Assembly: GCA_017501545.1 (NCBI GenBank)
Contig: JAFVWS010000023.1
Span: 31,967 to 95,966 of the forward strand
DNA: 64,000 bases
DNA from: Clostridia bacterium
GTDB taxonomy: Bacteria; Bacillota; Clostridia; Oscillospirales; CAG-272
Direction of reading: 5' to 3'
Each line of letters starts with the position of its first letter. Position 1 is the stretch's first letter. The translations under genes were made by a program, and so were the position numbers. Below, piece by piece: positions 9,034-60,237 of the stretch. The notes under the pieces are model-generated. The model searched no databases and was not told the DNA's origin. It was given only the letters and a program-made list of their open reading frames with translations.

Positions 9034-9051
9034 CAAAGGCAGGATAATAAA

Positions 9052-11235
9052 ATGAAGGACGCAAGATGGATTACCAACAAATGCGCAGGAGCAAGTGATA
9101 ATGCAACCTATTTCTTTAAAAGGAGCTTTTTGCTTGACAAGGTGTCAAGCGCCACTATTGAAATTAGCGCTCAGGCACGCTATAAGCTCTTTATAAATGG
9201 TGAATTTGTTGCGTGTGGCCCTTGCAAGGGCACGCGTGAAAAAACATATTTCGACGCACTTGACGTAACAAAATATTTAAGCGTTGGCGAAAACGAGATT
9301 TTTTGTGAGGTTTTACAGCTTGTTTCTGATGATATGCAGGGCAAAATGTCACCTATTGAGGGCGTAATTCGTGTTGGGGCTGCTCTTCTCACCTTGGAGC
9401 TTCGCTGTGGAGATTTTGTCCTCAAGACAAACGAGGACTGGCTCACCGCCAAAGCGCCTGTAAAGCATCTAAGCGCATCAAGCTGTTATTCTGCTACAAC
9501 ACGTGAAATTCACGACAAAACGCTCGACCCTGTGTGGGAAAACGCAGTTATACAGACTGGCGTTTCCAACGCCGAGGTTGACCACTACTGGTGGGGCTCA
9601 ACAAATAAATGCTTCCTTTACGAAAGACCTATTCCAATGCTTGATTTCAGCGACAAAACAAGCATTGTCAAATACGATGGCGAGTTTTTTGAGGCTGATT
9701 ATTTAACCTTCGGCTTCCCCACCTTTAAAATTTCAGGCAAGGGCACGCTTCGTCTTTACTATTTCGAGTGCTTTACCGAAATTCAAGGCAAGACAAACAA
9801 CGTTCGCACCGACAGAAGCCTCGATTTTACAAAGGAAATGTATGACGAGATTATAGTTGACGGTGAGACAACCTTCCAGCCGTTTTGGTTCAGATGCTTC
9901 CGCTTTATTAAGCCAGAGGCGCAGGGTGATATTACAGTTGAGCTTGTAAATATGACAGAGGTTAACTACCCTATGTTCCCAAGAGCTGACTACGATTTCG
10001 GTAGCAAGGTAGATAACAAGCTATGGGAAATTAGCGTGCGCACGCTTCAGCGCTGTATGCACGAAACATATGAGGACTGTCCATTCTATGAGCAATTACA
10101 GTATTGCATGGACACATCAACACAAATGATATTTAACTATCAGCTAACAAGCGACGACCGTCTTGCAAGAAAGGCTATGGATGATTTTGCAGCATCACAG
10201 CTTGCAAATGGTCTTATGCCATCAAGGACACCTTCAGTTGGTGACCAGCATATTCCTTCGTTCCAATTCTACTTTATATTTATGGTTTATGCGCACTATA
10301 CAAGATTTGGCGACGTTGACCTTGTAAGAAAGCACCTGCGCGCTATCGATGGCGTTTGTGAGTGGTTTACTAACCATATAAATGACGACGGCGTCGTTGG
10401 GCAAAGCAAGTATTGGAACTTTGTTGACTGGGCGACCCCTTGGGGCTATGTTAAGGACGAAAACGATGGTGGTGTGCCTGTTGGAATCCATGGTGGAGTT
10501 ATTGGACTTTACAACCCAATGATGGCGTACTTTTTGCAGTGTGCAGCCAAGCTAAACTTCGTTTGTGGCAGAGCTGACGTTGCAAACGAGTATTTGGCTA
10601 CTGCCGAGATGCTAAAGAAAAACACCGAAAAATATTTCTGGGACAAGGAAAAATGCTTATACGCTGACAACCTTGAGCACACAAAATATTCACAGCATAT
10701 GCAGACTTGGTGTGTGCTTAGTGGCTTGGCAACTGGTAGAAAAGCAAAAAAGATTATGAAAAACTCCCTTGCCCTTGAGGCAAAGGCAACGTATGCATTT
10801 GCATATTTCTATTTTCGCGCACTTGAGATTTGTGGCATGTACGAAAAGACCAAGGAAATGATGGACTCATACCGTGGACTTTTGAAGCTAAACTGCACAA
10901 CAGTGCCAGAAACTCCTACGTATTCAAGAAGTGACTGTCACGCGTGGGGCGCACTTGCAATTTATGAGTTTAGCGCAACCGTGCTTGGCGTGCGCACCTA
11001 TGACGTAAATGAAAAATCCGTTTCAATTAAGCCTTACATTAAGGGTAGAAAATACGCCAAGGGAACTGTATCAACTATTGCTGGTGACGTTACTGTTTCT
11101 TGGAAAAAGTCGGGGGACGTATTTGAAATCGCCATTGAAAGTGAGCAAAACGGAGTTAAAAAATACATCACCCTGCCAAATGGCGAGGAAGTTATAACAA
11201 GCAAGAAAAAATCAAGCTATAAATGCAAAATATAA
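9052..11235 (+). CDS. GH78-like alpha-L-rhamnosidase family (six-hairpin) glycoside hydrolase
   Basis: N-terminus ARWI...FFKRSF...ARYKLFINGEFV is typical of the rhamnosidase N domain. EDCPFYEQLQY motif of the (alpha/alpha)6 catalytic domain. Confidence 0.6.
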   Translation: MKDARWITNKCAGASDNATYFFKRSFLLDKVSSATIEISAQARYKLFINGEFVACGPCKGTREKTYFDALDVTKYLSVGENEIFCEVLQLVSDDMQGKMSPIEGVIRVGAALLTLELRCGDFVLKTNEDWLTAKAPVKHLSASSCYSATTREIHDKTLDPVWENAVIQTGVSNAEVDHYWWGSTNKCFLYERPIPMLDFSDKTSIVKYDGEFFEADYLTFGFPTFKISGKGTLRLYYFECFTEIQGKTNNVRTDRSLDFTKEMYDEIIVDGETTFQPFWFRCFRFIKPEAQGDITVELVNMTEVNYPMFPRADYDFGSKVDNKLWEISVRTLQRCMHETYEDCPFYEQLQYCMDTSTQMIFNYQLTSDDRLARKAMDDFAASQLANGLMPSRTPSVGDQHIPSFQFYFIFMVYAHYTRFGDVDLVRKHLRAIDGVCEWFTNHINDDGVVGQSKYWNFVDWATPWGYVKDENDGGVPVGIHGGVIGLYNPMMAYFLQCAAKLNFVCGRADVANEYLATAEMLKKNTEKYFWDKEKCLYADNLEHTKYSQHMQTWCVLSGLATGRKAKKIMKNSLALEAKATYAFAYFYFRALEICGMYEKTKEMMDSYRGLLKLNCTTVPETPTYSRSDCHAWGALAIYEFSATVLGVRTYDVNEKSVSIKPYIKGRKYAKGTVSTIAGDVTVSWKKSGDVFEIAIESEQNGVKKYITLPNGEEVITSKKKSSYKCKI

Positions 11236-18918: not shown

Positions 18919-19845
18919 TTAGTTGTTTTCTGGCTTTTTGTTTCTTCTTTTGTTTTCGCAGGTGATTACAATCTTACGGTTGTCATCATATCCAACGGAA
19001 TGGGTTGAAACACCCTCTACCTTTTGAATTTCAGAGTGAATAATCATTCTCTCGTATGGGTTCATTGGCTCAAGAAGCACGTTTCTTTGATACTTGAGAG
19101 CCTTCTGTGCCATTCTTCTTGCGAGCGCACGAAGTGTTGCCTCTCTCTTTTCTCTGTAATTCTCAATGTCAATAATAACCCTTACGTATTCCTTATGCTC
19201 GCCCTCGCTCTTGCGTGCTAAGCAAAGGTTTGAAAGGTATTGAAGTGCGTCAAGCATTTCGCCTCTGTGGCCGATTAGGCTTGGTGCGTCCTCTCCCTCA
19301 ATTGTGATAAGACGTGAAACAAAGCCCTTTTCATTAACGCTCATATCTCCCTTAACCTCGCAGTTAAAGCCGATATCAGAAATGAAGCCCTTTAAGAAGT
19401 TAATTGCAAGCTCCTTTTCCTTTGCTGTTACGTTAATGCTTTCTTCCTTTTCCTCCATAGTAGGAATTGACTGCGTCTTTTCCTCACGAGGTGCTTGTGT
19501 CTTTTGTTGTTTTTCGTTAGCAGGCTTTTGAGCTTGCTTATTCTCTTGCTTTGGAGCCTTATTCTCCTGCTTTGGAGCCTTCTTTACTTGCTCCTTTTCT
19601 TGGGTCTTTTGTTGCTTATTTTCAGCTTTTGGCTTATCCTGTGTCTCTTTTTGTGGCTTTCTTTCCGGCTTGCCGTCGTCAACAATTACCTTGATTTCTG
19701 CAAGCACGCGGCCGAATCCCAAAAAGCCCTTTTTGCCAGGATTGATAACCTCAATTGAAATCTCACCCAAGGAAGAATATATGTCGTTTGCCTTAGCATA
19801 CGCTTCTTCTACTGTTTTTGCTTGAAGTATGTGTTCGCTTCTCAT
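18919..19845 (-). CDS. jag: Jag/KhpB RNA-binding protein (Jag_N, KH, R3H) with a K/Q/E-rich low-complexity insert
   Basis: R3H-type C-terminus LEPMNPYERMIIHSEI..., N-terminal Jag_N-like domain, and position downstream of yidC. Confidence 0.85.
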   Translation of the reverse strand: MRSEHILQAKTVEEAYAKANDIYSSLGEISIEVINPGKKGFLGFGRVLAEIKVIVDDGKPERKPQKETQDKPKAENKQQKTQEKEQVKKAPKQENKAPKQENKQAQKPANEKQQKTQAPREEKTQSIPTMEEKEESINVTAKEKELAINFLKGFISDIGFNCEVKGDMSVNEKGFVSRLITIEGEDAPSLIGHRGEMLDALQYLSNLCLARKSEGEHKEYVRVIIDIENYREKREATLRALARRMAQKALKYQRNVLLEPMNPYERMIIHSEIQKVEGVSTHSVGYDDNRKIVITCENKRRNKKPENN

Positions 19846-19862
19846 ATTCTATTCCTTTTATA

Positions 19863-20954
19863 TTAATCTTCGTCGTCATCAATATGGTGAAGTGACTTAT
19901 ATGGAGCCGTTTCGCCATTGTTATAAACTATATCAGGTCGCTTGCTTTGACCACGCTTTGCGTCCTTCATTTCCTTTTCCATACGCTTTAAGTCCTCCTC
20001 GGTGTACTTCGGATACTTAAATATTCTTGAAAGGATGAATTGCTGTAGCATTGAAAGCAAGGTTCTGAAAATCCAGTAAATACCTACTGCGCCAGGTGTT
20101 AAGAATGTGAAGAACAAGGTCATAAGTGGCATACCCCACATCATAATCTTCATTGAGTTCATCATTCCGCCAGCGCCAGGCTGCTGTTGCTCTTGTTGTG
20201 GTGGTTGATATGAAAGCTTTCTTGAAATGAACTGTGCAAGGTAGGTAAGACCAAGGTTTACAAATGGAATCAAAAGTAAGAACCAAAGTGACCAGTCTGC
20301 AAAGGTTTGCCATGGGAATTGACCAAGGTTTTGTCCAAACAACGTTACGTTTGGAATATCGTCTGCGCGTGTAATGAGATAATGAAGCGCCTCGCCAGCC
20401 TCTTCGCTAGATACTGAAACCTTACCTGCCTCAAAGCCAGTTAGGATTTGGTCAAGCTCAGCTTTACCAGCGTCGCTTGTAAGCATTTCTCTGATTTCCT
20501 CAGAGATATAAACCTCTTTACCGCTTCTCATATTGTCAGGAATTCTGCCCGCATGGTCGAAGCACGCAACGATGTTTTCGCAAACACCCTTAGGAATTTC
20601 TGCAATAAAGCGAAGTGGGTTAATTACAACTGTGAAAAGTGGGAATACGATAATGAGCTGTAAAAGCATTGGCAAGCATCCCTTAAGTGGGCTGTAGCCC
20701 TCCTTTTGATAAAGCTCCATTATCTCGTTTTGCATTTTTTGTTGGGTAGCACGGTCTGTTCTGCCCGCGTACTTTTTACGAATGATGTACTCCATTGGGC
20801 GCATCTTCGCTTGCTTTACCATGTTTCTTTGTTGGATAATTCCAAAAGGACAAAGCAAAAGCTGCATAAGTAGCGCAAATAGCAAGATTGCGATAACATA
20901 GTTATCTGTCAAATCATAGCACCAGCTAAGCACCTTACCGAATAAAAAATTCAT
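19863..20954 (-). CDS. yidC: Membrane protein insertase YidC/SpoIIIJ
   Basis: Conserved MQ..QP....I..KY motifs, [22 protein letters not shown]. Synteny with rnpA-yidD. Confidence 0.9.
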
Positions 20955-21211
20955 TGTTCGTTATCTTCTCCTTTGAATTTCTGTCTTTTAAAGGTAAATT
21001 TGTCAGGCACGGGGTCATATCCACCACGGCAGAATGGATTGCACCTAAGCAGTCTATATCCACCAAGGAGTGAGCCCCTTATTGCACCAAATTTCTCAAT
21101 TGCCTCCATTGCATATTCCGAGCAGGTCGGAGTAAAGCGGCAGGCAGGTGGAAAAAGTGGTGATATTACCTTTTTATAACCTTTTAAAAAAAAGATAAGT
21201 ATTTTCTTCAT
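20951..21211 (-). CDS. yidD: Membrane protein insertion efficiency factor YidD
   Basis: [23 protein letters not shown] motif. 4-nt overlaps with both neighbours. Confidence 0.85.
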
Positions 21212-21585
21212 ACGTTAATCAAATTAAGAGCCTTAAATGCTCTTTCAATATCGCAGGCTATATCCTGCGTCTTGGCAAGCACACAAGCTTGTCTTGCCAC
21301 TAAGACAATCAAATTGCCCTTCTTTGTTTCATATTTTTTCTCTGTTTGTCTTAAGCCCTCACGCAAAATTCTTTTCACCCTGTTTCTTATATGCGCCTTT
21401 CCAAGCTTTTTGGAAACCGTAAGTCCAACTCTGTTAACGTACTCCCTTTGTGGGTGTGCATTCATTAATTTTTTAGCCTTTAGGTCGCGCAAAACGTACA
21501 CAATTACGTTTTTGCCAACGAATTTTTGTCCCTTTGCGTAGGTTTTCGAGTATAAGTGATTTTCACTGATTGCTATATGCTTCAT
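21208..21585 (-). CDS. rnpA: Ribonuclease P protein component
   Basis: Basic ~125-aa protein with the RNR-type motif ([14 protein letters not shown]), downstream of rpmH. Confidence 0.9.
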
Positions 21586-21761
21586 AACCGCTTCCTCCGT
21601 TTTGTAAATATCTCATTTACATTGCAGGCTAACCCCTGCACCTTTTTCCATCACGATTACTATGTGACATTTTCCCAGTCACTTAAGGGGCGACACTGTC
21701 GCTTAATGAAAAATCGGGACTTGCACAGTTGCAGTCCCGAATCTAAAGCATGCGCAATTAA

Positions 21762-21896
21762 TTAGTAAGTAAGTCTTGCTCTGCCCTTAGCGCGTCTTCT
21801 TTTCAAAACCTTTCTGCCGTCAGCAGTTCTCATTCTCTTTCTGAAGCCGTGCTCTTTCTTTCTTTGACGCTTCTTTGGTTGGTAAGTTCTTAACAT
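21762..21896 (-). CDS. rpmH: 50S ribosomal protein L34 (below the ORF-track size cut-off)
   Basis: Manual translation: [44 protein letters not shown]. Confidence 0.9.
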
Positions 21897-21981
21897 ATTA
21901 GCACCTCCTTGTTTCAAATTGGAAGTCGTAATGAATACGCAATCTGAATACTTTTTCTCGATAGTTTTTAAGACAAGTTAT

Positions 21982-22010
21982 ATTATACACACGAGTAATG
22001 GTTTTGTCAA
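21982..22010 (-). promoter_or_regulatory. Sigma-A promoter of rpmH-rnpA
   Basis: Minus strand TTGACA (22010-22005), 17 nt, TATAAT (21987-21982). Confidence 0.6.
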
Positions 22011-22069
22011 GTGTTTTTTTCGGCAAATGTAGTTTTTTGTGCTGTCGAGGCAATTTTAGCCCCATTTTT

Positions 22070-38087: not shown

Positions 38088-38176
38088 GAGCAGTTTTTTA
38101 GCAAAAATTCAAAACTGTACCGCTCTGTACCGGTTTGACTGTGAGAGAATATAAATGCAAGGGAAAGGAGGTCAAC

Positions 38177-39967
38177 TTGAAGAAGGAAGCATTGACAATA
38201 AATGATTTAACAGCAAAAAGGCGCGTCCTTTGGGAAAAGCATCACGATATAAAGCTTGACAGTGAGCTTGTACGCGCCATAGCCGACAAAATTCTCGACA
38301 CAGATTCAATACGTGACGAGGTGATAAATAAGCCGGAGCTACTAATTGAAGCGTGCTTTACCATAACCGACAAAAAAAGACGTAGCGTTCCATTCTTTTT
38401 AAACGAGGTTCAAAAAGACTTTTTGTCAAGAATATTGACACTGGGTCGCCAAAAACCTTATTTTGTACTAAAAGGAAGACAGCAAGGATTTACTACCTTG
38501 ATCACTGGTATGATGCTTGCAAATGCGATTGTAAAAAGGAATTTTTCAGGCTTTACGGTTGCAGACAGAGACGATAACACTCGTTCGATTTTCACCGACA
38601 AGGCAAAGCTTATGTACTCACTTTTACCATCAAGGCTTAAGCCGACAGAAAAATTCAACTCAGTGGGTGAGCTTTACTTTGATAAGCTAAATTCCTCGTG
38701 GAGGATAGCCTCTGCAACCTCAAACGTTGGTAGAAGCCGTACTCTTTCGTTTATTCACTACTCCGAGGTTGCATTTTTCAAATGTCCACTTAGCGATTTG
38801 CAAAAATCAATTGCCGAGGCAGCAACCGAGGATGCATTATGCATTTACGAAACGACAGCAAATGGCTTTAACGACGCAAAAAGGCTTTGGGACAGTGGCA
38901 CGTGCATAAATCTTTTCTACGAGTGGTGGAAAACCTCCGAATACGCATCAAAGGATCACGAATACCTAAAAAACCCCGACACGTGGCTTAAAAACAGACT
39001 TTTGTCACTGAAAAAGCGAGGCTTGAATGATGACCAGCTTGCGTGGTATGCAAAGAAATATCACTCTTACATTGATAAAAGCGCGATAAGGCAAGAATAT
39101 CCGTGCTCTCCCGAGGAGGCGTTTGTTACAAGTGGTGGCTCTGTGTTTGATACGGAGAAGATATCAAACTATCTAAGCCGTGGCACATTCAACTCACGCC
39201 GTGGATATTTTTCTTATAAGCTTCGTCCCGAGACAATGTATTCTCCAAGCGGAGAAATATACAGCTACAAAAGCACTATTAGTGAAATTTCCTTTGTTGA
39301 AAGCGAAGATGGTTACATTTCTATTGTTACCGAGCCACGTGCAACTATTGAGGGTGGTAGCATTTTGGCTAACCCCTACGTTATCGGTGCGGACACCGCT
39401 GGCACGGGCGAGGACTACTTTTCAGCAAAGGTTATAGACAACACAAGTGGTGCGTGCGTGGCTACTCTACACGTAAAAAATATGGACGAAGACCTTTTTG
39501 CACACCAGCTTTACTGCCTTGGAAGGTACTATCACGACGCACTAATTGCTGTGGAGATTAATTATTCCAGACACCCAGTAAGGGTTTTACGAGAGCTTGA
39601 ATATAAAAACCTATACTCCTCTCGCACCTTTAGCAGTAGCGAAAGAGGTGGAGAGTATGGCTTTTTGACTACATCAGTATCAAGACCAATAATAATTTCC
39701 AACCTAATTTCTATAATGAGAGAAAATATTGAGCTTGAGACTGACCGTCAAACCCTTATGGAAATGACAACCTTTGTAAGGCGCGAGGACGGAAAAATTG
39801 CCGCCGCAAACGGTAGCCACGATGACCTTGTTATGGCAAGTGCTATTGCACACTTCGTCTCCTCCTCGTTTGCCCATAGTCCAGTTTTGGTTGGTCAAAG
39901 AAAGGAATTTATAAGTATGCATTTTTCGCCTCCTACCTTGCAAAATGAAGCCTACATGGAGTGGTAA
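38177..39967 (+). CDS. terL: Phage terminase large subunit
   Basis: Walker A-like VLKGRQQGFTT, coupling motif IHYSEVAF, C-terminal RNaseH-like nuclease (IGADTAGTGEDYF ... GSHDDLVMA). TTG 38177 is preceded by AAGGAGG. Confidence 0.85.
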   Translation: MKKEALTINDLTAKRRVLWEKHHDIKLDSELVRAIADKILDTDSIRDEVINKPELLIEACFTITDKKRRSVPFFLNEVQKDFLSRILTLGRQKPYFVLKGRQQGFTTLITGMMLANAIVKRNFSGFTVADRDDNTRSIFTDKAKLMYSLLPSRLKPTEKFNSVGELYFDKLNSSWRIASATSNVGRSRTLSFIHYSEVAFFKCPLSDLQKSIAEAATEDALCIYETTANGFNDAKRLWDSGTCINLFYEWWKTSEYASKDHEYLKNPDTWLKNRLLSLKKRGLNDDQLAWYAKKYHSYIDKSAIRQEYPCSPEEAFVTSGGSVFDTEKISNYLSRGTFNSRRGYFSYKLRPETMYSPSGEIYSYKSTISEISFVESEDGYISIVTEPRATIEGGSILANPYVIGADTAGTGEDYFSAKVIDNTSGACVATLHVKNMDEDLFAHQLYCLGRYYHDALIAVEINYSRHPVRVLRELEYKNLYSSRTFSSSERGGEYGFLTTSVSRPIIISNLISIMRENIELETDRQTLMEMTTFVRREDGKIAAANGSHDDLVMASAIAHFVSSSFAHSPVLVGQRKEFISMHFSPPTLQNEAYMEW

Positions 39968-40126
39968 ATGTTTATTTCAAAGAAAAAATTACAAGAAATC
40001 GAGAACAAATTAGCGCGTCTTGAAAAGAAGCTGGTTTGCCTCGAAAGCAAGAAAACAGCCGACCCTGTGGATGAAATTTCATATAAGGAGGTCGTTGACG
40101 AATGGTTAAATGGAAAGAAGAATTAA
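39968..40126 (+). CDS. Small coiled-coil protein (52 aa), unannotated in the ORF track
   Basis: The ATG abuts the terL stop (TAAATG). Translation MFISKKKLQEIENKLARLEKKLVCLESKK... Its end overlaps the portal start by 25 nt. Confidence 0.35.
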   Translation: MFISKKKLQEIENKLARLEKKLVCLESKKTADPVDEISYKEVVDEWLNGKKN

Positions 40127-41706
40127 AGTCAGAATTAACCCCTTCGTATCATTTATATCAAGATGCCCTTAGTAGTCAGCTTAGGATGGGTTTGCGTGTT
40201 AAAATACCTGAATGTGTTGATTTTTACGAGGGTCGCCAATGGCCACCTGCCACAGAAAACACCAAAAATCTGCCACGGCCGGTTGTAAACGTCGTCAAAA
40301 TGATTTGCAGAAGTAAAAAGGGAGCCATTTTGTCTACTCCCGTTAAAATTCACTATAAAAGCTACTCTCCATATACCGACATAGAGCGCTTTAACGCATT
40401 TGCGACAAGCGTTTTCAGAGAAATCGGTCAGGATGAGCTTGATAGATTAGCAATCGACGACGCAATCAAGAAGGGCTCCTACTTTTTTCATTATTTTTGG
40501 GACAAGGAGTCAATTTCAAGGGAAAGTGGCGAGGTCGGCGCGCTTTCTTGTGAGCTAATCGACCCTCTAAACATCTTTTTTGCAAATCCAGCTGAAACAA
40601 ATGAGCAGAAGCAGGATTGGATTATGATTAGCTCGCGAATAAAGACGGAAAAAATCAAAAATATGGCTGACCCGGACGCCGATACAACACTGCTCATGCC
40701 CGACGGAGACGAAAACGACAACAAAACAACGCTTCTAACGCGCTATTTTAGAGTTGGAAACGACGTTTTTTGTGAAAGACAGACTAAGTTTTGTATAATT
40801 TCTAAGCCGTTTAACATTATTCCAGCACCTTTTGATAAGAAAAGCAAGGCGCAAGGGGGCAAGAGGAAGGAGCGTATTCTCTACCCTATTGTTTGTGGGC
40901 AGTACGAAAGACGTGAAAATTCAATATACGGAATGGGCGAGGTTGAGGGCTTAATTCCTAACCAAAAGGCAATTAATTTCAACATTGCAATGAGCCTTTT
41001 AAATGCTCAGCAGTGTGCTTGGGGCAAGTATGTTGCTCTTCCAAATGCGTTAAACGGACAAAAAATTTCAAACGTCCCAGGACAAGTTCTTGTTGACTTT
41101 TCAGGCACTGGCGAGGGTATCAAAAGACTACCGGAATCAGAGCTTTCAAGGGCGCCGATGGAGCTGACCACTGCGCTCGAGGAGCTTACAAGGTCAGTCA
41201 GTGGTGCATCAAGCGTGATGACTGGTGAAATAAGCGGGACAAGCCTTTCTGGCGCTGCAATTGCATATCTGCAATCCCAAGCGCAGGTGCCAATTGAGGA
41301 ATTAAAAAGCTCCTTTTGGTTTGCAAAGCGCAAGCAGGGCATGGTCGTTGCGCAGTTCTTAAAGCATTTTTACCTCAAGCACGCGTACATAAAAATTAGC
41401 CCTGACAAGAAGTGTGACGGCGTATTTGACGAATTTTCATCACGCGATTTCGAGTCGTCACTTTTTGAGGTTTACGTCGAAGCTATCGGTGGCACAAAAG
41501 CGTCCTTAGCGTCCGACATTTCGTTGCTTGATAGTTGTCTTAAGGCAGGTAAAATTTCGCTTGAAACCTATATTCGAGCTTACCCTGCGTCTGCAATCAC
41601 TAACAAAGAAGAGATACTCAAGCAAATCAAGCTTGAAAAGGATTCAGAGGTTGAAATTTTACGAAAGGAGCTCAAGGAGCTAAAGGAAAAGTATGCAGAA
41701 TTCTAA
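40102..41706 (+). CDS. Phage portal protein
   Basis: ~530 aa directly after terL. DFYEGRQWPP motif near the N-terminus, typical of portal families. C-terminal coiled coil. Confidence 0.8.
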   Translation: MVKWKEELKSELTPSYHLYQDALSSQLRMGLRVKIPECVDFYEGRQWPPATENTKNLPRPVVNVVKMICRSKKGAILSTPVKIHYKSYSPYTDIERFNAFATSVFREIGQDELDRLAIDDAIKKGSYFFHYFWDKESISRESGEVGALSCELIDPLNIFFANPAETNEQKQDWIMISSRIKTEKIKNMADPDADTTLLMPDGDENDNKTTLLTRYFRVGNDVFCERQTKFCIISKPFNIIPAPFDKKSKAQGGKRKERILYPIVCGQYERRENSIYGMGEVEGLIPNQKAINFNIAMSLLNAQQCAWGKYVALPNALNGQKISNVPGQVLVDFSGTGEGIKRLPESELSRAPMELTTALEELTRSVSGASSVMTGEISGTSLSGAAIAYLQSQAQVPIEELKSSFWFAKRKQGMVVAQFLKHFYLKHAYIKISPDKKCDGVFDEFSSRDFESSLFEVYVEAIGGTKASLASDISLLDSCLKAGKISLETYIRAYPASAITNKEEILKQIKLEKDSEVEILRKELKELKEKYAEF

Positions 41707-42286
41707 AAAGCACGAGGAAAACGGTGCAATGAACGAAAAATTTGAGCAATTAACAATAGATGCTTCAAATCTTGAGTCAAAAGCAGAGGAAAATATTCTA
41801 AATTCCACTAACAACTTACCAGAAAAAGGCAGCAAATCCACAGGTAAAACGTGTAAAGACGAGCTCGTTGAAAACGCAAAAACACCCGACCCAGTGTCTG
41901 AGTTTGGCACTTTTAATGTGGAATCAACGACAGAAAATACTATTAGCGATGAAGATGATAGCTTACTATTTTCCAAACTATTTCCGGGCGTTTCGCGCGA
42001 AAGTGTCGAAAACGACGAAGTTTTCAAGCTTTTTTCAAAAAGTAGGCTGAAAAATGCACCATTTTCAGTGATTTACAGTGATTTTCGCGCTTTAGTTGAT
42101 AAAATTAGCCAGAGTGAGAGAGAAAAGCTTGCTTTTAGTGCGAAGGTAGCTAATTCAAGCCCTGGCGCCCTTGCTTCAAGCGCTACCGACGACTCTTTCT
42201 TTACAAAAGAGCAGGTTTTGAGAATGAGCAAGGAGCAAATCGCAAGAAACTACCAAAAAATAAGACAAAGTCAAGAGAGATGGTAA
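41693..42286 (+). CDS. Phage capsid scaffolding protein (probable)
   Basis: Acidic, low-complexity ~197-aa protein between portal and capsid genes. C-terminal FFTKEQVLRMSKEQIARNYQKIRQS resembles scaffold C-termini. Overlaps the portal stop. Confidence 0.6.
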   Translation: MQNSKKHEENGAMNEKFEQLTIDASNLESKAEENILNSTNNLPEKGSKSTGKTCKDELVENAKTPDPVSEFGTFNVESTTENTISDEDDSLLFSKLFPGVSRESVENDEVFKLFSKSRLKNAPFSVIYSDFRALVDKISQSEREKLAFSAKVANSSPGALASSATDDSFFTKEQVLRMSKEQIARNYQKIRQSQERW

Positions 42287-42493
42287 ACCGAAGGCCTTAC
42301 GCATCTTGGCGTCAAATTTGGGCGCTGTGAGCGTCTAAGAGGCGTTTTTTAAAGAGTTTAAGCAATACTGAGTAAATTAGCGGGCGCTGAAGGGAGGGCT
42401 CCTTAAGCCGTTATTTGTGCAGTGTGTCCCGCAAAGGTAAAATCCTTTTTCTTCGCAACTACGCGACTCAGTCGCAATATAAAGGAGAACATT

Positions 42494-43336
42494 ATGGCTT
42501 ATTCAAATTTTATTCCATCAGTTTGGTCAGAATCAATCAACCGAGAGCTTGAGCGCGCTTGTGTCTTCGCCGAGGACTGTAACCGTCAATACGAGGGTGA
42601 GGTTTCAAAGAAGGGTGACAGCGTTCACATTCTTGGCGTTGGCAAGCCAACAATCAAGTCACTCTCTCGTGAAAACGCAAGCGGAGAGATTGACGCCGCC
42701 GAGGAGGTAAGCGACACATCCGTAATTCTTGGCATCAACCAAATCAGATATTTCAACTACAAGGTGGGCGACATTGACAAGGCGCAAGCAATTGGCGGAC
42801 TTATGGATGCCCTTTCCGAGGAAACAAGCGAGGGTCTTGCAAACGAAATCGACAAGTACATTGCCGAAATGGTGCTTGACGAAAGTGTTAGCAAGCTCAC
42901 AGCTACACCAACAGTAGTTACAAAGGAAAACGTCCTTTCAATTCTTGACGATGCAATCGAGGCACTACAAGAAAACGATGTCAACATGGCAAGCGGTGTT
43001 ACAGTAACAGTTTCACCACGCTTTTACAAGCTATTCAAGCAAGCATACAGCGCCATTGACACCGGCAACAGCGACATGCTCAAAAACGGCAAAGTGGCTA
43101 CGTACGGCAACGTGACCGTCAAGCTTTCAAACAACGTTGCAAAGAGCGACAGTGGCGCGACTGACAACATTATGATCAGATCCAAGCGTGCCATCGCATT
43201 TGTGAACCCAGTTACTCACACAGAGGCTTATCGCCCAGAGAAATCCTTTGCCGACGCAGTCAAGGGTTATGCTCTTTTTGACGGCAAGGTGGTAAGACCC
43301 AAGGAAATCATCAACGTTAACGTAAAATACGCTTAA
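42494..43336 (+). CDS. Phage major capsid protein (probable HK97-fold)
   Basis: 280 aa in the position after the scaffold gene. N-terminal FIPSVWSESINRELE is typical of small major capsid protein families. ATG 42494 has an AAGGAG RBS. Confidence 0.7.
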   Translation: MAYSNFIPSVWSESINRELERACVFAEDCNRQYEGEVSKKGDSVHILGVGKPTIKSLSRENASGEIDAAEEVSDTSVILGINQIRYFNYKVGDIDKAQAIGGLMDALSEETSEGLANEIDKYIAEMVLDESVSKLTATPTVVTKENVLSILDDAIEALQENDVNMASGVTVTVSPRFYKLFKQAYSAIDTGNSDMLKNGKVATYGNVTVKLSNNVAKSDSGATDNIMIRSKRAIAFVNPVTHTEAYRPEKSFADAVKGYALFDGKVVRPKEIINVNVKYA

Positions 43337-43403
43337 TTGGTCTAATTTCGCTTTATTCCGCTGTTTAGGCAACGCACCGCAGCTCGCAAAAGCACAAGAG
43401 CAA

Positions 43404-43440
43404 AGGAACACAGTCTTTTCGACTGTGTTCCTTGTTTTGT
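43404..43440 (+). terminator. Strong rho-independent terminator closing the head module
   Basis: AGGAACACAGTC-ttttc-GACTGTGTTCCT followed by TGTTTTGT. Confidence 0.8.
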
Positions 43441-44135
43441 ATATTTATTTAATTTTATTGTATAATTATACTTTATTTAAAATATGTCAACCATATTATG
43501 CCAAGCCCTGTGTTTGTTTGTTACATTTTGTTAACATTTGGTTTATAAATATTTATTCATCGTTTTTATGTAAATTTAACAGCAAAAAATTGATTTTAAA
43601 AAAAGATTTTGCTCGGTGGAAAATCAAACGATGCTAAAAAATCGCCGCAAAGCCTTATAGTAAAAGGGCGCACAAGAGATTTTTCATTCTTTTTTCTCTC
43701 CTTGGCGTTTTTTCAAAAAAATCGCAAAAAATCTGTACAAATCCATATAGCAAAAGCGCCGAGGGCAAAAAATTTATCGTTTTACAGCAGTTGTGAAAAA
43801 CCAGCGTAAAAGCCTCAAAAAGCAAGTCGCTATAAGGCTCAGGACGGAATTTTAACGGCACCAAAGAGGATTTTATACTTATATGTAAAAACGCGCCTAT
43901 TTCGGCACAATCAGCCGAGCATATAGCTGTTTTCAGCCACTTGCGTACTCCGGCAGTGCATTTGTTACCGCTTTGCAGACTTCTCTCTACCGTTTGTCAA
44001 GATGCGACAATAAAAGTGCTAATTTTACCACACGCTTTGGCATTTTTCGCCGTCGAGAAATGTTATTATAATAGTGGAAATATTATTTCCAAATTTATTA
44101 AATTTAATATTCAAAAGCAAGAAAAAGGAGTCAAA

Positions 44136-44933
44136 ATGAAGGAAGAAAAAGAGGTATTCAAAGAGGTATATTCCATAGGCGTAGACAAAATCTCGCCCAA
44201 CCCAAATCAGCCGAGAAAGGACTTTTCAGACGACGCAATTCTGAAATTAGCAAGCAGCATAAAGCAGTTCGGAATCATCCAACCACTATGCGTGCGCGAG
44301 TGCGAAAACGGCTACGAATTAATATCAGGTGAAAGGCGCTTAAGGGCAGCCAAGGAGCTTGGTATGGCATTTGTGCCGTGCATAATCAGCGAGGCAAGCG
44401 ACGAAAAAAGTGCCGAAATGGCAATTATAGAAAACATCATCAGACAAGATTTAAACGTATTCGAGGAGGCCGAAGCAATCGAGGTTTTGATTGATACATA
44501 TTGCTTGACACAGGAGCAAATTGCCGAAAAGCTAAGTGTCAGCCAGTCGTTTATTGCCAACAAGCTAAGGCTTTTAAGGCTAAGTGCAGGCGAGCGTGAA
44601 AAAATTCTGAAAAACAAGCTAACAGAGCGCCATGCGAGAGCCCTTCTAAGAATATTTGATCCGGATATACGCGCAAAAGCCCTCGACGCCTTCATAGGGG
44701 AAGGATTAAACGTCTCAAACGCCGAGGAGTACGTTGATAAGCTGCTTTCAAAATCAAGCCCACAAAAGTCCAAAAGGCGCGCGTACAAAAGCATCGGCGC
44801 GTTTTATGATTCAATTAACAGAGCAATATGCGCAGTTGAAAACGCAGGAATAAAGATAAAAAGCAGAAAAATAGAGAGCGACGAGTACACAGAGCTAACA
44901 ATCATCGTGCCCAAGGAAAGCGCTTGTGTGTAA
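44136..44933 (+). CDS. noc: ParB-family protein, Noc-like paralogue
   Basis: ParB box ISPNPNQPRK, GERRLRAAKELG, HTH LTQEQIAEKLSVSQSFIANKLRLLRL. ATG 44136 has AAAGGAG. The track's upstream extension lacks an RBS. Confidence 0.8.
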   Translation: MKEEKEVFKEVYSIGVDKISPNPNQPRKDFSDDAILKLASSIKQFGIIQPLCVRECENGYELISGERRLRAAKELGMAFVPCIISEASDEKSAEMAIIENIIRQDLNVFEEAEAIEVLIDTYCLTQEQIAEKLSVSQSFIANKLRLLRLSAGEREKILKNKLTERHARALLRIFDPDIRAKALDAFIGEGLNVSNAEEYVDKLLSKSSPQKSKRRAYKSIGAFYDSINRAICAVENAGIKIKSRKIESDEYTELTIIVPKESACV

Positions 44934-45205
44934 GAGGCAACACAAGCCAGAAAGCCCCCAAAAACCATAAAAAAGCGCTTAAAAGTGGCAAAAAGCTCGG
45001 GCTTACGTTGAAAAGTTCAAGCTTTGTTGACAAGGCAACAATTTGGCGCACAAAGGCAATTGCCATAAGCCTTGGCGAGCAGTGAACGTTGTTTACGAAT
45101 TTCCATATTTTTCCATTTTTCGACAAAATTCAAAGAGTTTTCAACGTGTTTTTCAACAAGAGGTTGATTTTTGATAAAAATCGCACGTTGAAGTAGTCAT
45201 TTCGT

Positions 45206-45240
45206 AAAAGAGCAACCCTTGATAGGTTGCTCTTTTTCTT
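45206..45240 (+). terminator. Rho-independent terminator about 270 nt after noc
   Basis: AGAGCAACC-cttgata-GGTTGCTCT followed by TTTTTCTTTT. Confidence 0.6.
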
Positions 45241-45368
45241 TTCAAGCACTATCAAGCCAAATGACGAGCGCCAGCGCATTTAGAGAACACAGAAAAAAGG
45301 CAGAGGCGACAAAAAGATAAGCTTTAGCGCCCACCAATGCAACGACCAAATACGATAAATTCCGACAT

Positions 45369-45384
45369 TGTTTCACGTGAAACA
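45369..45384. promoter_or_regulatory. parS: parS site (perfect)
   Basis: TGTTTCACGTGAAACA, the perfect 16-bp ParB-binding palindrome. Confidence 0.85.
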
Positions 45385-45799
45385 CATATTTCGGCGAGCG
45401 TGAAGTCCGTAAATAAGCATTTTGCAGGCACATCAAATAAGACACACAGTGACACCCACAAAAACCACCGTAAGAAAAGAGGCATCACTGTGGCAAAAGT
45501 GGCGCGGACAAGCCGCGCATAAGCAAAAAAAGGAGAGGCAGCATGGTCAACAAGCAAGGGCGAGGGGTGGTGCGAGCAAGGACGAGGGGGTGGCACAAGC
45601 CAAAAGAGAGCGCATAGTGTTCTGTAAACCGCACCAAGCTAAAGGGAAAAATCGCACACAAGGAAGGGTCAATGGCAGGTCGCCAATCCACCATGCCAAA
45701 GGGCGCAAAAATTGCGTATGACAAAGGCACAGGCTACACCACCCCGCCCCGAGACCACTTGCCTTGCAGAAAAAACTATCGCTTTTACCAAAAACGCCT

Positions 45800-45815
45800 T
45801 GTTTCACGTGAAACA
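45800..45815. promoter_or_regulatory. parS: parS site (perfect)
   Basis: TGTTTCACGTGAAACA. Confidence 0.85.
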
Positions 45816-46107
45816 TCCCCCCACGCGTCACCATACAAAAACCCAAGTGCAACGGAAAACAGAAAGTGCACATTTTGTAAAACGTACATAGTGAATAGTT
45901 AAAAGAGGCACACAAAGGCGAGTGCGCGAAAACCAACCCCTGTCGGAGGGAGCCACAAACGCCAACTAAGCCGTTATATTCGCAACAGCCGACATCCACA
46001 AAAAGCACAAAGCTTCCTAGAAAAGTAGAGGCTTTGTGCGCCCGTTTTGACCTCTTTTTCTCATACTATGGTGCCCTCACATCAATAGCTCAACTAAGCA
46101 ATTTCTG

Positions 46108-46123
46108 TGTTTCACGTGAACAA
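46108..46123. promoter_or_regulatory. parS: Degenerate parS site (one half intact, 1-nt deletion in the other)
   Basis: TGTTTCACGTGAACAA. Confidence 0.55.
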
Positions 46124-46590
46124 TACACAAAATAAGCAAAATTGTAGGCACGAAAAGGCGTCAAAATCACAATAACGAAGAGGCACGTCCATTCAAGCTC
46201 CATAGATAGCGCTTGGGTGGCAGAAGCTCAGCTCTCTGTAAAGCGCCCATGCCGAAGGCTCCTTTTGAGAGAAAGCAACCAGAAAATCAGCGTTGATTTC
46301 AGAAATGCACGCCCTCGTTTAGCGATTCAAGGCCGATGTGGGGGCGGGTTTAAAAGGGGCCCGCCACATTCTTTCAAAAATTAGAAAGGTGTAGCATTGC
46401 AAAAAGCAGAAAAGCGTAGCATTCAAAAAGCAGAAAGCTCCACGTTTTTGAGACAAACAAAAGTAGTCTGGTTTAAAAGCTTGCTTTAAAGTTGGCACGT
46501 TAAAGTGGTTCATAAATGGTTTTTAGCAAAAGGAAGCTCCGAAACGGCTACGCAACACCAACACCCTCTTCCCTTCTCACTTACCGGCTG

Positions 46591-46606
46591 CGTTTCACGT
46601 GAAACA
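46591..46606. promoter_or_regulatory. parS: parS site (one mismatch)
   Basis: CGTTTCACGTGAAACA, about 85 nt upstream of soj. Confidence 0.8.
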
Positions 46607-46692
46607 TTTTAATTTTTTTGAAAATTTCTATTGATTTTGTCGATTTTTAATGATATACTTTTAGTAAGAACTTTAGTAGAGGAGCTAAAACT

Positions 46693-47472
46693 GTGCAAAT
46701 TGTTTCTTTTGCAAATCAAAAGGGCGGTGTTGGCAAGACTACGTCAGCCCTTAATTGCGCTACAATGCTTGGCGTGCTTGGCAAAAGAGTTTTGCTTTTG
46801 GATTTAGATCCACAAGCTAACAGTACAAGCTCGCTTGGAATATCAAAAAACGGCGTGAAGTATACCATTTACGAGGTTTTATCCGGAAAAGCAAAGGATA
46901 TTTCTCAAGCAATCATCGCAACTAAATTTAAAAACCTATCTATTATCCCATCAAATATGGCTTTAGCAAGCTTAGAAACAGAGCTTAGTATGCAGGGCGG
47001 CCGTGAAGCATATCTCAAAAGAACGTTGAGCGAGCTTGAAAAAACAGATTTATTTGATTACGTCATCATCGATTGTCCACCATCGCTTGGAATGTTGACA
47101 ATCAACGCTTTAGTAGCAAGCACCGGATTAATTATTCCTATGCAATGCGAATATTTCGCCCTTGAAGGACTTACGCAGCTAATGATGAGCGTAAAAGCGA
47201 TAAAAAACAGATACAATCCCAACCTAAATATCACCGGAATATTAATTACGATGTTCACTCCGCGCTTCAGACTTTCAAAAGAGGTGCTTGCGGAGCTTGA
47301 AAATTATTATTTTGACATTGTTTTTGAGCAAAAAATTTCTCGCAGTATAGTCATCAGTGAATCATCGAGCTATGCTGAGCCGCTTTATTATTATTCCAAA
47401 TACTCAAAATCGAGTCTGGAATATATGGCAGTAACAAAGGAAATCATTACTCGAATAGAAGGAATTATATAA
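46693..47472 (+). CDS. soj: Chromosome partitioning ATPase ParA/Soj (GTG start)
   Basis: Deviant Walker A NQKGGVGKTT, LLLDLDPQ, IIDCPPSLG. GAGGAG RBS. Confidence 0.92.
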   Translation: MQIVSFANQKGGVGKTTSALNCATMLGVLGKRVLLLDLDPQANSTSSLGISKNGVKYTIYEVLSGKAKDISQAIIATKFKNLSIIPSNMALASLETELSMQGGREAYLKRTLSELEKTDLFDYVIIDCPPSLGMLTINALVASTGLIIPMQCEYFALEGLTQLMMSVKAIKNRYNPNLNITGILITMFTPRFRLSKEVLAELENYYFDIVFEQKISRSIVISESSSYAEPLYYYSKYSKSSLEYMAVTKEIITRIEGII

Positions 47473-47488: not shown

Positions 47489-48376
47489 ATGAAAAAAGGA
47501 CTTGGAAGAGGACTTGACTCCATCTTCGCAGACAACTACATCGAGGTTGCCTCAAAGGAAGAGGGCATCCAAACACTTAGAATTTCACAGGTTGAGCCAA
47601 AGGCAGACCAACCAAGAAAATATTTCGACGAGGAAGCTCTTTTAGAGCTTTCAGATTCAATCAAACGTCACGGACTTCTCCAACCTATTATAGTTCGTGA
47701 AAGCTCTGCTGGTTACTATCAAATTATCGCAGGTGAGCGCAGATGGCGCGCATCAAAGCTTGCCGGACTTACAGAAATTCCTGCTATCGTTATGCAAGCT
47801 GACGCTCTTGAGGCGGCAGAAATTGCAATTATCGAAAATATTCAGCGTGAGGACTTAAACCCATACGAGGAAGCTACTGCATATGCATCTCTCATTGAGC
47901 AATATGGTCTAACCCAAGAGGAGGTTAGCGAAAAGGTTGGAAAGTCAAGAAGCGCAGTTGCAAACACAATGCGTCTACTCGACCTGCCAGAGGACGTGCT
48001 TGAAATGCTAAAAACCGGCGATATTTCTGCCGGCCACGCACGCGCGCTCCTTGGACTTAAGGACAAAGAGGTTATTGTTGACACAGCTGAACAAATTCTC
48101 ATTCGTTCACTCTCTGTACGCGACACAGAGGCTCTTGTTAAGAAGCTTAACAAGGAATATGAAAAGGGTCTTAATCCTTCCCCCGTTACTAAAAGTAACG
48201 AGATAGAGGTTGACTACGTTAAGGACCTTGAGAAAAAGGCAATGCATTTAACTGGCAAGCGCGTAAAAATCAAGACAAAGGGCAAGGTGTCTACCGTTGA
48301 GATAGACTTCTACGGAAACGACGACCTTGAGGACATTTTAGTAAAGCTTTGCGGTAAAGACATCATCGAGAAATGA
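47489..48376 (+). CDS. spo0J: Chromosome partitioning protein ParB/Spo0J
   Basis: KGLGRGLDSIF, ParB box QPRK, GERRWRA, HTH LTQEEVSEKVGKSRSAVANTMRLLDLP. Confidence 0.92.
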   Translation: MKKGLGRGLDSIFADNYIEVASKEEGIQTLRISQVEPKADQPRKYFDEEALLELSDSIKRHGLLQPIIVRESSAGYYQIIAGERRWRASKLAGLTEIPAIVMQADALEAAEIAIIENIQREDLNPYEEATAYASLIEQYGLTQEEVSEKVGKSRSAVANTMRLLDLPEDVLEMLKTGDISAGHARALLGLKDKEVIVDTAEQILIRSLSVRDTEALVKKLNKEYEKGLNPSPVTKSNEIEVDYVKDLEKKAMHLTGKRVKIKTKGKVSTVEIDFYGNDDLEDILVKLCGKDIIEK

Positions 48377-48908: not shown

Positions 48909-49152
48909 TGCCGTTTCAGCTAAATTTAAGCCGTTTTTTGAGCCTTTCGCTTCATTCCCGAGTGTTTGCCCACCCAAAGCTTGCCCGTCTCTTTTTAAGC
49001 CTCGTTTGGCTTCCACTGCCTACGCCTCACAGAAGAGCTAAATCGTTAGCCCCTCGCTTATTTGTCTTGATTTTTAGCCCACAATTTGTTATAATGCAAT
49101 TAGCTACGTAATGCATAATTACAAGCAAAATCAATTATACAAGGAACATACT

Positions 49153-57614: not shown

Positions 57615-57815
57615 AATGAAATCGTGGCTATACCACGATGAAATCTTCGCTTTACTCAGATGAAATCCAAGGCGTTGCCTTGGATGAAATCAAATCCGTC
57701 TGTTATAACCCTGCGAAGCAGGATTTCATCGCGAAAGCGATTTCATCCACCATAGGTGGATTTCACCCGTCGAAGACGGATTTGACTGCGTGATACTCCG
57801 TTAAGAGTATCACGC
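57615..57815. repeat. Multi-hairpin array with constant GATGAAATC / GATTTCATC linkers
   Basis: Hairpins at 57621-57639, 57665-57685, 57710-57722, 57728-57741, 57745-57761, 57767-57779 and 57788-57815. Linker GATGAAATC occurs 4 times in the left half. Its reverse complement GATTTCATC (and variants) occurs 4 times in the right half. Confidence 0.7.
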
Positions 57816-59180: not shown

Positions 59181-59459
59181 TTAGAGTAGGTAGTATGGTA
59201 GGTCGTCGCCTATTGCAAGATGCACAAAGCCTTGCTTTTTTGGTGTTGCTGTCTTTTTTGTTGGCTTCTTTGCTGTTTTCTTTGGGGCCTCCTTAGCTGG
59301 CGCTTCTACTACTGTTATAGGCTCTGTTACAGGCACTTCAGCCTTTGGTGGTTCCTCTGTCGTTGCAATAGCGCTGTTTTCCATATCAGGCGCTGTGCTT
59401 TTTACGTTGGAATAGCCACTATTGGAAACTCTTTTAATCGCATTTTTACCTATTGGCAT
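59181..59459 (-). CDS. Small disordered basic protein, candidate partner/adaptor of the ParA-like ATPase
   Basis: AAGGAGG RBS 9 nt upstream. The start overlaps the ParA-like stop by 14 nt. Basic N-terminus MPIGKNAIKRV, P/A/E/K-rich low-complexity core, conserved-looking C-terminus GFVHLAIGDDLPYYLL. Confidence 0.55.
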   Translation of the reverse strand: MPIGKNAIKRVSNSGYSNVKSTAPDMENSAIATTEEPPKAEVPVTEPITVVEAPAKEAPKKTAKKPTKKTATPKKQGFVHLAIGDDLPYYLL

Positions 59460-60237
59460 ATTCTACTACCTCCTTTGCAAGACTTCTATACTCAATAGCG
59501 CTTCTTGAATACTTTTTGTAAGCAACAACGGGCTTGCTATTGTCCTGTGACCATTCAATTGCACTATCAACCTTAACGTAGGTGTCAAAAACCCTTACGT
59601 CCTCCGACTCACGAAGGGATTTTAGAGTTTCCTTGAAGTAATTCTTTCTCTCGTCTGCCTTAGTCACCATAATTCCCATGATTTCAAGGCGAGGTGCCAT
59701 TTCTCTTACCTTGCCGATAAAATCAAACATATTTGCAAGGCCGAAAAGTCCCCAAGGGCTTGCCTCAACAGGGATAATAACATAGTCAGAGGCGCACATT
59801 ACGTTCATAACCCAGCCACCAAGCGTTGGGGGAGAGTCAATTAATATGTAGTCATAATAGCCACGCGCCTTAACCGGCTCAAGACACTTTTTAAGTATAA
59901 ACTCTCTTTGCCACTTTGTAAAAAGGTCAAACTCAATTGAGCTCATAAGTGAGGTTGATGGTACAATATCAAGCCCCTCATATTCTGTTGGCACAATAAA
60001 GTCAGAAAGGTCCCTTTCCTCCTTTAGGGCAGTATATATATTTTTTCCGTTGCTTGCGTACTCTAAAACCTTTTCCTCGTCAAAGAAGGAAAGTGTTAAA
60101 TTTATCTGCATATCGCCATCTATAAGTAGTACCTTTTTGCCCATCATAGAAAGCGCACAGCCGATATTTGAGCAGGTTGTGGTTTTTCCACTTCCGCCCT
60201 TGTTATTCGCAAACGCGATTACCTGAGTTTTGCTCAT
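59446..60237 (-). CDS. ParA/MinD-family ATPase encoded inside the microcompartment operon
   Basis: Deviant Walker A NNKGGSGKTT, LLIDGDMQ, ILIDSPPTLG. 4-nt overlap with the upstream eutP-like gene. Confidence 0.88.
   Translation of the reverse strand: MSKTQVIAFANNKGGSGKTTTCSNIGCALSMMGKKVLLIDGDMQINLTLSFFDEEKVLEYASNGKNIYTALKEERDLSDFIVPTEYEGLDIVPSTSLMSSIEFDLFTKWQREFILKKCLEPVKARGYYDYILIDSPPTLGGWVMNVMCASDYVIIPVEASPWGLFGLANMFDFIGKVREMAPRLEIMGIMVTKADERKNYFKETLKSLRESEDVRVFDTYVKVDSAIEWSQDNSKPVVAYKKYSRSAIEYRSLAKEVVEYANR

Follow-up and report, generated by a model that had tools for sequence, protein, structure and literature searches.

The 1,759-bp gap between a noc-like parB paralogue and soj in the stretch of Clostridia bacterium DNA analysed here (64,000 nt of contig JAFVWS010000023.1, hereafter the window) is very likely a chromosomal ParABS partition site, or centromere, whose parS sites are set in a fast-evolving and probably neutral spacer. 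The gap extends from the stop of the noc-like gene at 44933 to the GTG start of soj at 46693, as placed in an earlier note on this DNA, and all parS matches of the window lie inside it, next to the genes for a ParA-type ATPase and a second ParB:

44136-44933, plus strand: gene for a Noc-like ParB paralogue of 265 aa with ParB_N and HTH_ParB domains, the left border of the gap
45369-45384, no strand: parS1, a perfect TGTTTCACGTGAAACA
45800-45815, no strand: parS2, a perfect match
46108-46123, no strand: parS3, degenerate (TGTTTCACGTGAACAA), left half-site intact and a 1-nt deletion in the right arm
46591-46606, no strand: parS4 (CGTTTCACGTGAAACA), one mismatch, located 24 nt ahead of the -35 hexamer of soj
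46693, plus strand: start codon of soj, GTG with a GAGGAG ribosome-binding site
46693-47472, plus strand: soj (ParA), matching Pfam AAA_31/ParA
47489-48376, plus strand: spo0J (ParB), with Pfam matches

We searched the 64-kb window for TGTTTCACGTGAAACA with up to three mismatches, using 100 shuffles as control, and obtained four matches against 0.42 expected, a number reached by none of the 100 shuffles. These 16-bp palindromes, typical of the chromosomal ParABS centromere, span 1.24 kb, with neighbours 300-500 bp apart, and both their positions and their imperfections agree with those first reported. Outside the gap the same search found no parS in the window, not even inside spo0J, which confirms the initial impression, and same-species contigs extend this absence by ~7 kb to the left and ~6 kb to the right, for ~77 kb covered overall.

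The two ParB-family proteins that border the array differ in the residues that determine DNA specificity. According to the four-residue code of Jalal et al., ParB carries R173, T179, A184, and G201 and Noc carries Q, K, K, and R at the equivalent positions, although binders of Noc-binding sites (NBS) tolerate arginine or lysine at the third one (PMC7383237). Spo0J of the window has R-T-D-G, a parS-type combination with R and G at both parS-determining positions, and Soj is a ParA-type ATPase by its AAA_31/ParA match, so that the cognate parS-type ParB and the nearby ParA ATPase of a ParABS system are both present. The upstream paralogue resembles Noc in its NBS-type residues (Q-K-R-R) and in its end-to-end alignment with the NCBIfam Noc model TIGR04285; unlike in the Noc/NBS system, its score of 272.6 bits falls below the cut-off of 315 (Spo0J reaches 249.4 bits on the same model), and the NBS palindrome, with up to three mismatches, is absent from the gap and not enriched in the 64-kb window (three matches against 3.5 expected). 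We thus discarded NBS sites as a component of the gap, and we call the paralogue Noc-like instead of assigning it as Noc. Given the parS-type residues of Spo0J and the NBS-type residues of its paralogue, the array appears to be targeted by Spo0J and not by the Noc-like neighbour, which, judging from these residues, is unlikely to read it.

Several other elements occupy the gap. From left to right, it contains a DnaA-box-like block, a terminator, a T-poor filler with parS1 and parS2, parS3, a G-rich hairpin that is also a variable-number tandem repeat (VNTR), a 25-nt repeat identified with Tandem Repeats Finder (TRF), parS4, and the soj promoter:

44995-45195, plus strand: DnaA-box-like 9-mers in a cluster, of which ~60 bp (45099-45158) form a conserved core
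45206-45236, plus strand: intrinsic terminator of noc, a 12-pair stem then TCTTTTC; an A-run precedes the stem and a T-run follows it, suggesting a bidirectional terminator
45241-46030, no strand: T-poor filler holding parS1 and parS2, delimited by base composition, with no homology, coding conservation or RNA-structure signal
46340-46365, plus strand: G-rich hairpin/VNTR, unit GGGGG(C/T)GGGTTTAAAA(AA)GG of 18-20 nt, one copy in the window (46340-46357)
46373-46437, plus strand: 25-nt tandem repeat, 2.7 copies, TRF score 93
46631-46659, plus strand: soj-spo0J promoter (TTGATT, 17 nt, TG, TATACT)

The array recurs in related species. Through the Noc-like protein we retrieved 11 of them and, in 12 of 12 species including that of the window, the noc-soj gap holds three to six parS within 0.46-2.2 kb. 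Seven further species with Noc 66-72% identical form, together with the window, a long-gap group:

L097: gap of 895 bp, 4 parS
L096: gap of 1,357 bp, 4 parS
L091: gap of 1,506 bp, 6 parS
L089: gap of 1,615 bp, 4 parS
Window: gap of 1,759 bp, 4 parS
L092: gap of 1,774 bp, 4 parS
L094: gap of 1,971 bp, 4 parS
L098: gap of 2,202 bp, 4 parS

Four more distant species (Noc 63-65% identical) have short gaps of 456-603 bp with three to five parS, often paired or in triplets ~39 bp apart. At the long-gap loci, no parS was found in the 7-17 kb read outside each gap. The clade shares the layout noc, DnaA-box-like block, terminator, parS, soj promoter, soj. In all eight long-gap species, 281-436 nt separate the noc stop from the first parS, which is preceded in L089, L091, L096, and L098 by hairpins equivalent to the noc terminator; the third is intact or one base off in the relatives; and the last is located, in every species, 24-29 nt upstream of a promoter of the form TTGATT, 17-18 nt, TAnAnT, which in all long-gap relatives falls within a 75-90-nt block detected by blastn. 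Site numbers hardly differ across the clade, while the spacing varies more than 10-fold, from ~40 bp to ~700 bp. As a control, we inspected 75 other ParB-centred loci from diverse phyla, which have at most two parS within 2.5 kb and, for 58 of the 75, none. With arrays in 12 of 12 species of the clade and three or more parS in 0 of the 75 controls, we regard the dense single-gap array as a trait conserved in this clade and uncommon in our sample, which bears out the idea of a dedicated, gene-free intergenic parS array beside parAB. In L092 (7999-8014) and L094 (3986-4001), the second parS forms part of a longer hairpin with GC flanks and a T-run behind it (AAAAAGGCA-parS-CTGCCTTTTTT), so that the site doubles there as a terminator-like structure.

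As had been proposed from the letters alone, the gap does not contain any credible gene. Its longest open reading frame (ORF; 153 aa, minus strand) matched no Pfam family and retrieved only 100%-identical self-matches among 5.8 billion proteins, no gene was called in the gap of five independent contigs of the same species, and tblastx against five orthologous gaps yielded only short blocks that match in every frame and on both strands, indicating conservation at the DNA level and not of coding sequence. A pseudogene graveyard, with the parS as relics of once-intragenic sites, would agree with the overlapping ORFs of 40-153 aa that are open on both strands and with the capacity of T-poor DNA in this genome to encode K/Q/E-rich linkers (for example in Jag, 18919-19845). 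Those open frames probably reflect composition, since a low-T strand, whose complement is low in A, holds few stop codons. Moreover, no other species yielded a homologue of the longest ORF, eight species with Noc merely 66-72% identical all retain a non-coding gap, and the short-gap relatives fit the array into 0.46-0.6 kb, where there is no space for a gene. The orthologous gaps are thus non-coding instead of aligning to intact genes, and we consider the graveyard explanation largely refuted and highly improbable.

The earlier note had also raised the possibility of a long non-coding transcript, and the gap, which is long, non-coding, and of odd composition, could in principle specify one or serve as an extended structured 5' leader of soj. 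Nevertheless, Rfam searches of the gap, both at gathering scores and at E<=10, returned no known RNA apart from weak terminator-type matches at 45204-45242, and the folding z-scores of the T-poor core against shuffles (-1.16 on the plus strand and -1.03 on the minus strand) are not significant. A strong terminator ends noc at 45236 and promoter-like sites are absent from both strands between 45144 and 46631, and the gap sequence is so little conserved between species that it offers nothing on which to test covariation. With no known family matched and a folding energy no better than that of shuffles, the gap is improbable as a structured or long non-coding RNA.

The DNA between the parS sites is not conserved, and it grows and shrinks via tandem-repeat slippage. 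Between species, blastn aligns just the parS, the block formed by parS4 and the promoter, and the ~60-bp DnaA-box-like block; only the close pair L092/L094 aligns throughout the gap, at 73% identity. Within the species of the window, the gap is 100% identical in five metagenome contigs apart from an indel in the VNTR and one run of Ns, and the copy number of the VNTR unit at 46340 goes from one in the window to two in L001 and three in L002, L004, L005, and L006. The tandem repeat initially noticed at about 46390-46440 is indeed there, in the form of the 25-nt unit listed above. In L092 and L094, noc is flanked on either side by T-poor tandem repeats with units of 23 and 39 nt, and in L089 an (ACAAGC)n microsatellite (8930-9160), with ~22 readable units and an N gap within, directly follows the box block. 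Two other assemblies of the L089 species, L009 and L090, end in (ACAAGC)n, with more than 20 units at the L090 end, so that three independent assemblies of this sister species break or carry Ns at the microsatellite.

The scarcity of T on the plus strand, which the earlier note had ascribed to the entire gap, is real but narrower, being restricted to a core of ~800 bp (45241-46030; A 37, C 25, G 23, and T 14%) with flanks of ordinary composition, for a T content of 21.5% across the whole gap. The lowest-T 600-bp stretch of the window falls within this core, with 12.8% T against a mean of 29.2% (standard deviation 4.3), that is, ~3.8 standard deviations below. T-poverty does not hold as a defining feature of the element: the window, L096 (500 bp with 10-12% T), and L089 are strongly T-poor, L091, L092, L094, and L098 mildly so, and L097 (T 34%) and the short-gap species not at all, and the equivalent stretch of the sister species is occupied by the microsatellite. 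Since some array-bearing species lack it, T-poverty is not required for array function. We propose that the filler would be a largely neutral spacer renewed by slippage, its T-poverty being a by-product of the expansion of T-less units. A decayed microsatellite as the source of the window's own core was considered and discarded, as the core retains no 6-nt or other periodicity, TRF finds nothing in it, and its k-mer enrichment is mild; the idea comes solely from the sequence of the relatives.

The gap could alternatively be a 'regional centromere', with about four parS and a DnaA-box cluster embedded in a spacer selected to stay free of genes and promoters. T-poverty of one strand would then strip -10 hexamers and stop codons from both strands, and a satellite-like turnover of repeats would renew the spacer, providing a transcription-free platform on the soj promoter for the loading and sliding of ParB clamps. 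We find this unlikely, although, if true, the length and composition of the spacer would be tuned features and not the outcome of drift, and the spacings of 40-700 bp seen across the clade would amount to a natural experiment on parS clustering.

The only conserved block of the gap that is neither parS nor promoter lies just downstream of noc. The earlier note had listed several ACGTTGAA/TTCAACGT words at 44995-45195, correctly, as three of their four occurrences in the window fall at 45005-45185, but had overlooked that they belong to this block. They are copies, in both orientations, of the box TTTTCAACGT, with inverted copies (ACGTTGAA) at 45005 and 45185, and the core at 45099-45158 comprises the 9-mers ATTTCCATA, TTTTCCATT, TTTTCGACA, TTTTCAACG, and TTTTCAACA. 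The block is the densest cluster of TT[AT]TC[CA]A[CT] in the 64-kb window. None of the 9-mers in the window gap comes within one mismatch of TTATCCACA, so that the gap does not qualify as a DnaA-box cluster of oriC type, whereas the homologous block of the relatives has one to three such boxes each; over the 12 gaps we counted 16 of them against 3.8 expected, nearly all in the homologous block. In L011, dnaA is located ~7.6 kb downstream of the array, accompanied by a clear DnaA-box cluster, and the region after it is packed with the motif variants of the block (TTTTCCACA/TGTGGAAAA, TTATCAAC, TTTTCCATA, and GTTGAAA). These shared motif types support the view that the block consists of DnaA boxes of this lineage. 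By its sequence, it may well be a small DnaA-box cluster, for which we see about equal chances either way; its most likely role would be that of a secondary DnaA-binding cluster linking the partition operon to the initiator. The candidates for a dnaA gene beside noc in L012 and L013 were rejected, as the ORFs concerned encode MnmE, a methyltransferase, and others.

Within the conserved block, the window, L096, L097, and L098 share the motif TTCGACA (45117-45125 in the window), which corresponds to a perfect Spo0A '0A box' in reverse orientation, although it could equally be a DnaA-box variant. The related TGTCGAT occurs in the spacer of the soj promoter (46637-46643).

Could it be that, by virtue of this block, replication in the long-gap clade starts at the gap and that dnaA has moved elsewhere? 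The block is conserved, it is the densest cluster of its kind in the window, its motif types match the dnaA-flanking cluster of L011, and rnpA-yidC-jag is present without a neighbouring dnaA, a gene that we did not find in the window nor in the ~7 kb to its left and ~6 kb to its right. Against this, the block has only four to six weak boxes, and the dnaA-dnaN region of L011 is far richer in boxes; L011 has a distinct dnaA-linked cluster besides the block, so that its origin is not the block. There is neither a GC-skew turn nor a switch of gene orientation at the gap, the cumulative skew climbing steadily from 38 to 54 kb with noc and soj co-oriented. Across the window, the boxes within one mismatch of TTATCCACA are scattered and unclustered and the cumulative skew tracks gene orientation, which led us to rule out an oriC in the window. 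We therefore judge it very unlikely that the gap serves as an origin. As for the proximity of one, the window contains origin-region genes and in L011 dnaA lies close to the array.

These origin-region genes place the array in a chromosomal housekeeping context, with rnpA-yidC-jag, gdpP-rplI-dnaB, and pth-mfd around it. The region at 18919-21585 (minus strand) and 21586-22069 holds a jag-like gene preceded by ORFs that fit yidC and rnpA in size and order; all three were named by eye, without a family search. The jag-like gene (jag 18919-19845, within 18919-21585, minus strand) encodes a KH/R3H-type sequence with a K/Q/E-rich linker, whose DNA is also T-poor and contains 21-nt repeats (19537-19592). 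After rnpA-yidC-jag comes a radical-SAM gene in the place of dnaA. With no dnaA near these genes or within ~77 kb, the canonical rpmH/dnaA junction appears to be rearranged in this lineage.

The array had also been likened to a plasmid centromere more than to the dispersed, mostly intragenic parS of chromosomes, a comparison that our results do not support: its sites are the canonical chromosomal 16-mer, its neighbours are housekeeping genes of the origin region, tight chromosomal parS clusters were already known, and a blastn search set for distant similarity found nothing resembling the gap in 72,556 plasmids or 50,697 phages, on which ground a relic of a plasmid or other mobile element was rejected. 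Upstream of noc there is, nevertheless, a P22-like head module (38135-43336, plus strand) that comprises a large terminase, a 52-aa ORF, a portal, a scaffold-like protein, and a major head protein, and that stands alone, without tail, lysis or integrase genes. It lies between DUF711-ACT and noc in seven species, the window and six relatives with Noc 66-72% identical. These are all the long-gap species in which the DNA upstream of noc could be read, as the L096 contig begins at noc. The module looks like a domesticated capsid module beside the centromere, perhaps akin to gene transfer agents (GTA) or phage-inducible chromosomal islands (PICI). Its constant presence and the resemblance of an intergenic array beside parAB to a plasmid centromere are what could suggest a plasmid- or phage-derived partition cassette integrated in the chromosome, possibly tied to the head module as a packaging or GTA-type recognition region. 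However, in addition to the absence of DNA similarity to plasmids and phages, the array consists of the universal chromosomal parS, soj and spo0J belong to the canonical chromosomal type, the short-gap relatives carry noc, parS, and soj without the head module, and L097 has the module yet a short, T-rich gap. Such a cassette is, in our opinion, extremely unlikely. Between the head-protein gene and noc lies an AT-rich intergenic region of 800 bp (43337-44135, GC ~30-35%) with a strong terminator at 43403-43433, and the equivalent region of L092 and L094 is the one that bears T-poor 23-nt tandem repeats upstream of noc.

Taking the gap as a chromosomal partition site, and by analogy with established ParABS systems, Spo0J/ParB dimers would load as CTP-bound clamps at parS1, parS2, and parS4, and perhaps weakly at parS3, and would slide along the gene-free DNA (~1.5 kb) and into the adjoining sequence to form a single dense ParB-DNA complex, on which Soj/ParA would act and which would recruit SMC. 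In Caulobacter, ParB spreads up to ~2 kb from one site (PMC5815017); with a similar reach, the zones of four sites 300-500 bp apart would merge into a continuous and heavily loaded one. The complex would overlap the soj promoter and, as parS4 is only 24 nt upstream of the -35 hexamer, it probably modulates soj-spo0J transcription in a feedback loop.

Several points weigh against this interpretation. The T-poor filler always has the same polarity: in several species whose sequences cannot be aligned, it is the noc/soj coding strand that shows A>T, which neutral slippage alone does not explain. The loading, spreading, and autoregulation of ParB are all inferred by analogy from established ParABS biology. 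The enrichment of boxes in the 12 gaps is inflated by the shared ancestry of the block, the DnaA-box interpretation is weak in the window, where no 9-mer approaches TTATCCACA within one mismatch, and the link of the block to the initiator, a step that we infer, is likewise weakest in this species. Finally, neither dnaA nor a clear oriC is found within ~77 kb in the species of the window.

Compact sets of parS have been described in other bacteria. In Caulobacter crescentus, the five strongest parS lie within 5 kb, ~8 kb from ori (PMC5815017), Corynebacterium glutamicum has ten parS in 35 kb, nine of them intergenic (PMC7083940), and Myxococcus xanthus has 22 parS near ori (PMC3899335). As in those species, the window has several canonical 16-bp parS close together near parAB and among origin-region genes, which would by analogy nucleate one ParB complex; the existence of these tight chromosomal clusters implies that the kind of element is not new. 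Unlike them, the array is confined to a single intergenic region, between two ParB-family genes, and combines a near-constant number of sites across species with spacings from ~40 to ~700 bp. The Caulobacter parS, moreover, sit inside essential or high-fitness-cost genes (PMC5815017), whereas those of the window are intergenic. The resemblance to Bacillus subtilis concerns the parS sequence, the gene order noc-soj-spo0J, and the Spo0J and Noc specificity residues. One strong B. subtilis parS is located inside spo0J; the window, by contrast, has no parS in spo0J or elsewhere in ~77 kb, and all its sites are packed in one gap. The four strongest B. subtilis parS are 5, 13, and 39 kb apart (PMC5815017).

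The intergenic position of the array, adjoining the parAB operon and its promoter, is shared with plasmid centromeres, which makes autoregulation plausible. In P1 parS, F sopC, and other tandem-repeat parC/parS arrays, intergenic ParB sites lie beside a parAB operon and its promoter. Unlike in these plasmids, the palindrome of the window is the chromosomal consensus, its spacers are irregular, its context is chromosomal, and it lacks similarity to plasmids. With respect to the DnaA-box-like block, B. subtilis DnaA-box clusters (DBCs) and Spo0J jointly restrain initiation (PMC3245932), and in Pseudomonas aeruginosa DnaA at oriCII regulates gidAB-parAB (PMC13438810). The block is likewise a small box-like cluster beside partition genes and among genes of the origin region; it differs from DBCs and oriCII in that its boxes are weak and putative and in that it is placed between noc and the parS array instead of at a promoter. 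What is particular here is the combination of a single noc-soj gap, a near-fixed number of sites, a spacing that varies more than 10-fold, a linked DnaA-box-like block, and a satellite-like spacer.

A few observations concern the DNA to the right of the operon. The purine-rich tract that had been compared with the T-poor gap (48910-49090) has 17.7% A on the plus strand and turned out to belong to an ordinary spacer of 238 bp, which contains a terminator and a promoter and measures just 144 bp in the closest relative. A second ParA/MinD-type ATPase, of 263 aa (59446-60237, minus strand), is encoded at the end of a glycyl-radical-enzyme bacterial microcompartment (BMC) locus that includes BMC shell proteins, a PFL-like enzyme, an activase, and PduV/EutP. 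This ATPase has no relation to the parS array and is a candidate ParA for the positioning of microcompartments. A match to the Gut-1 RNA (RF01706) at 57718-57788 (minus strand) scored 55 bits, just over the gathering score of 50.

In the literature searched, we found no description of a clustered noc-soj parS array in Clostridia, which is absence of evidence only. The array is an expected element at an expected place, denser than in model Firmicutes, and it indicates that the dispersed, partly intragenic parS pattern of B. subtilis is not general for this phylum. A recent review of ParABS systems lists as open questions the clustering of parS sites and the variation in their number, given that a single one is often enough (PMC7333895). 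The clade described here, of uncultured gut Clostridia, offers comparative material, and a compact natural cassette, on how the number and spacing of sites affect ParB loading, spreading, and parAB autoregulation.

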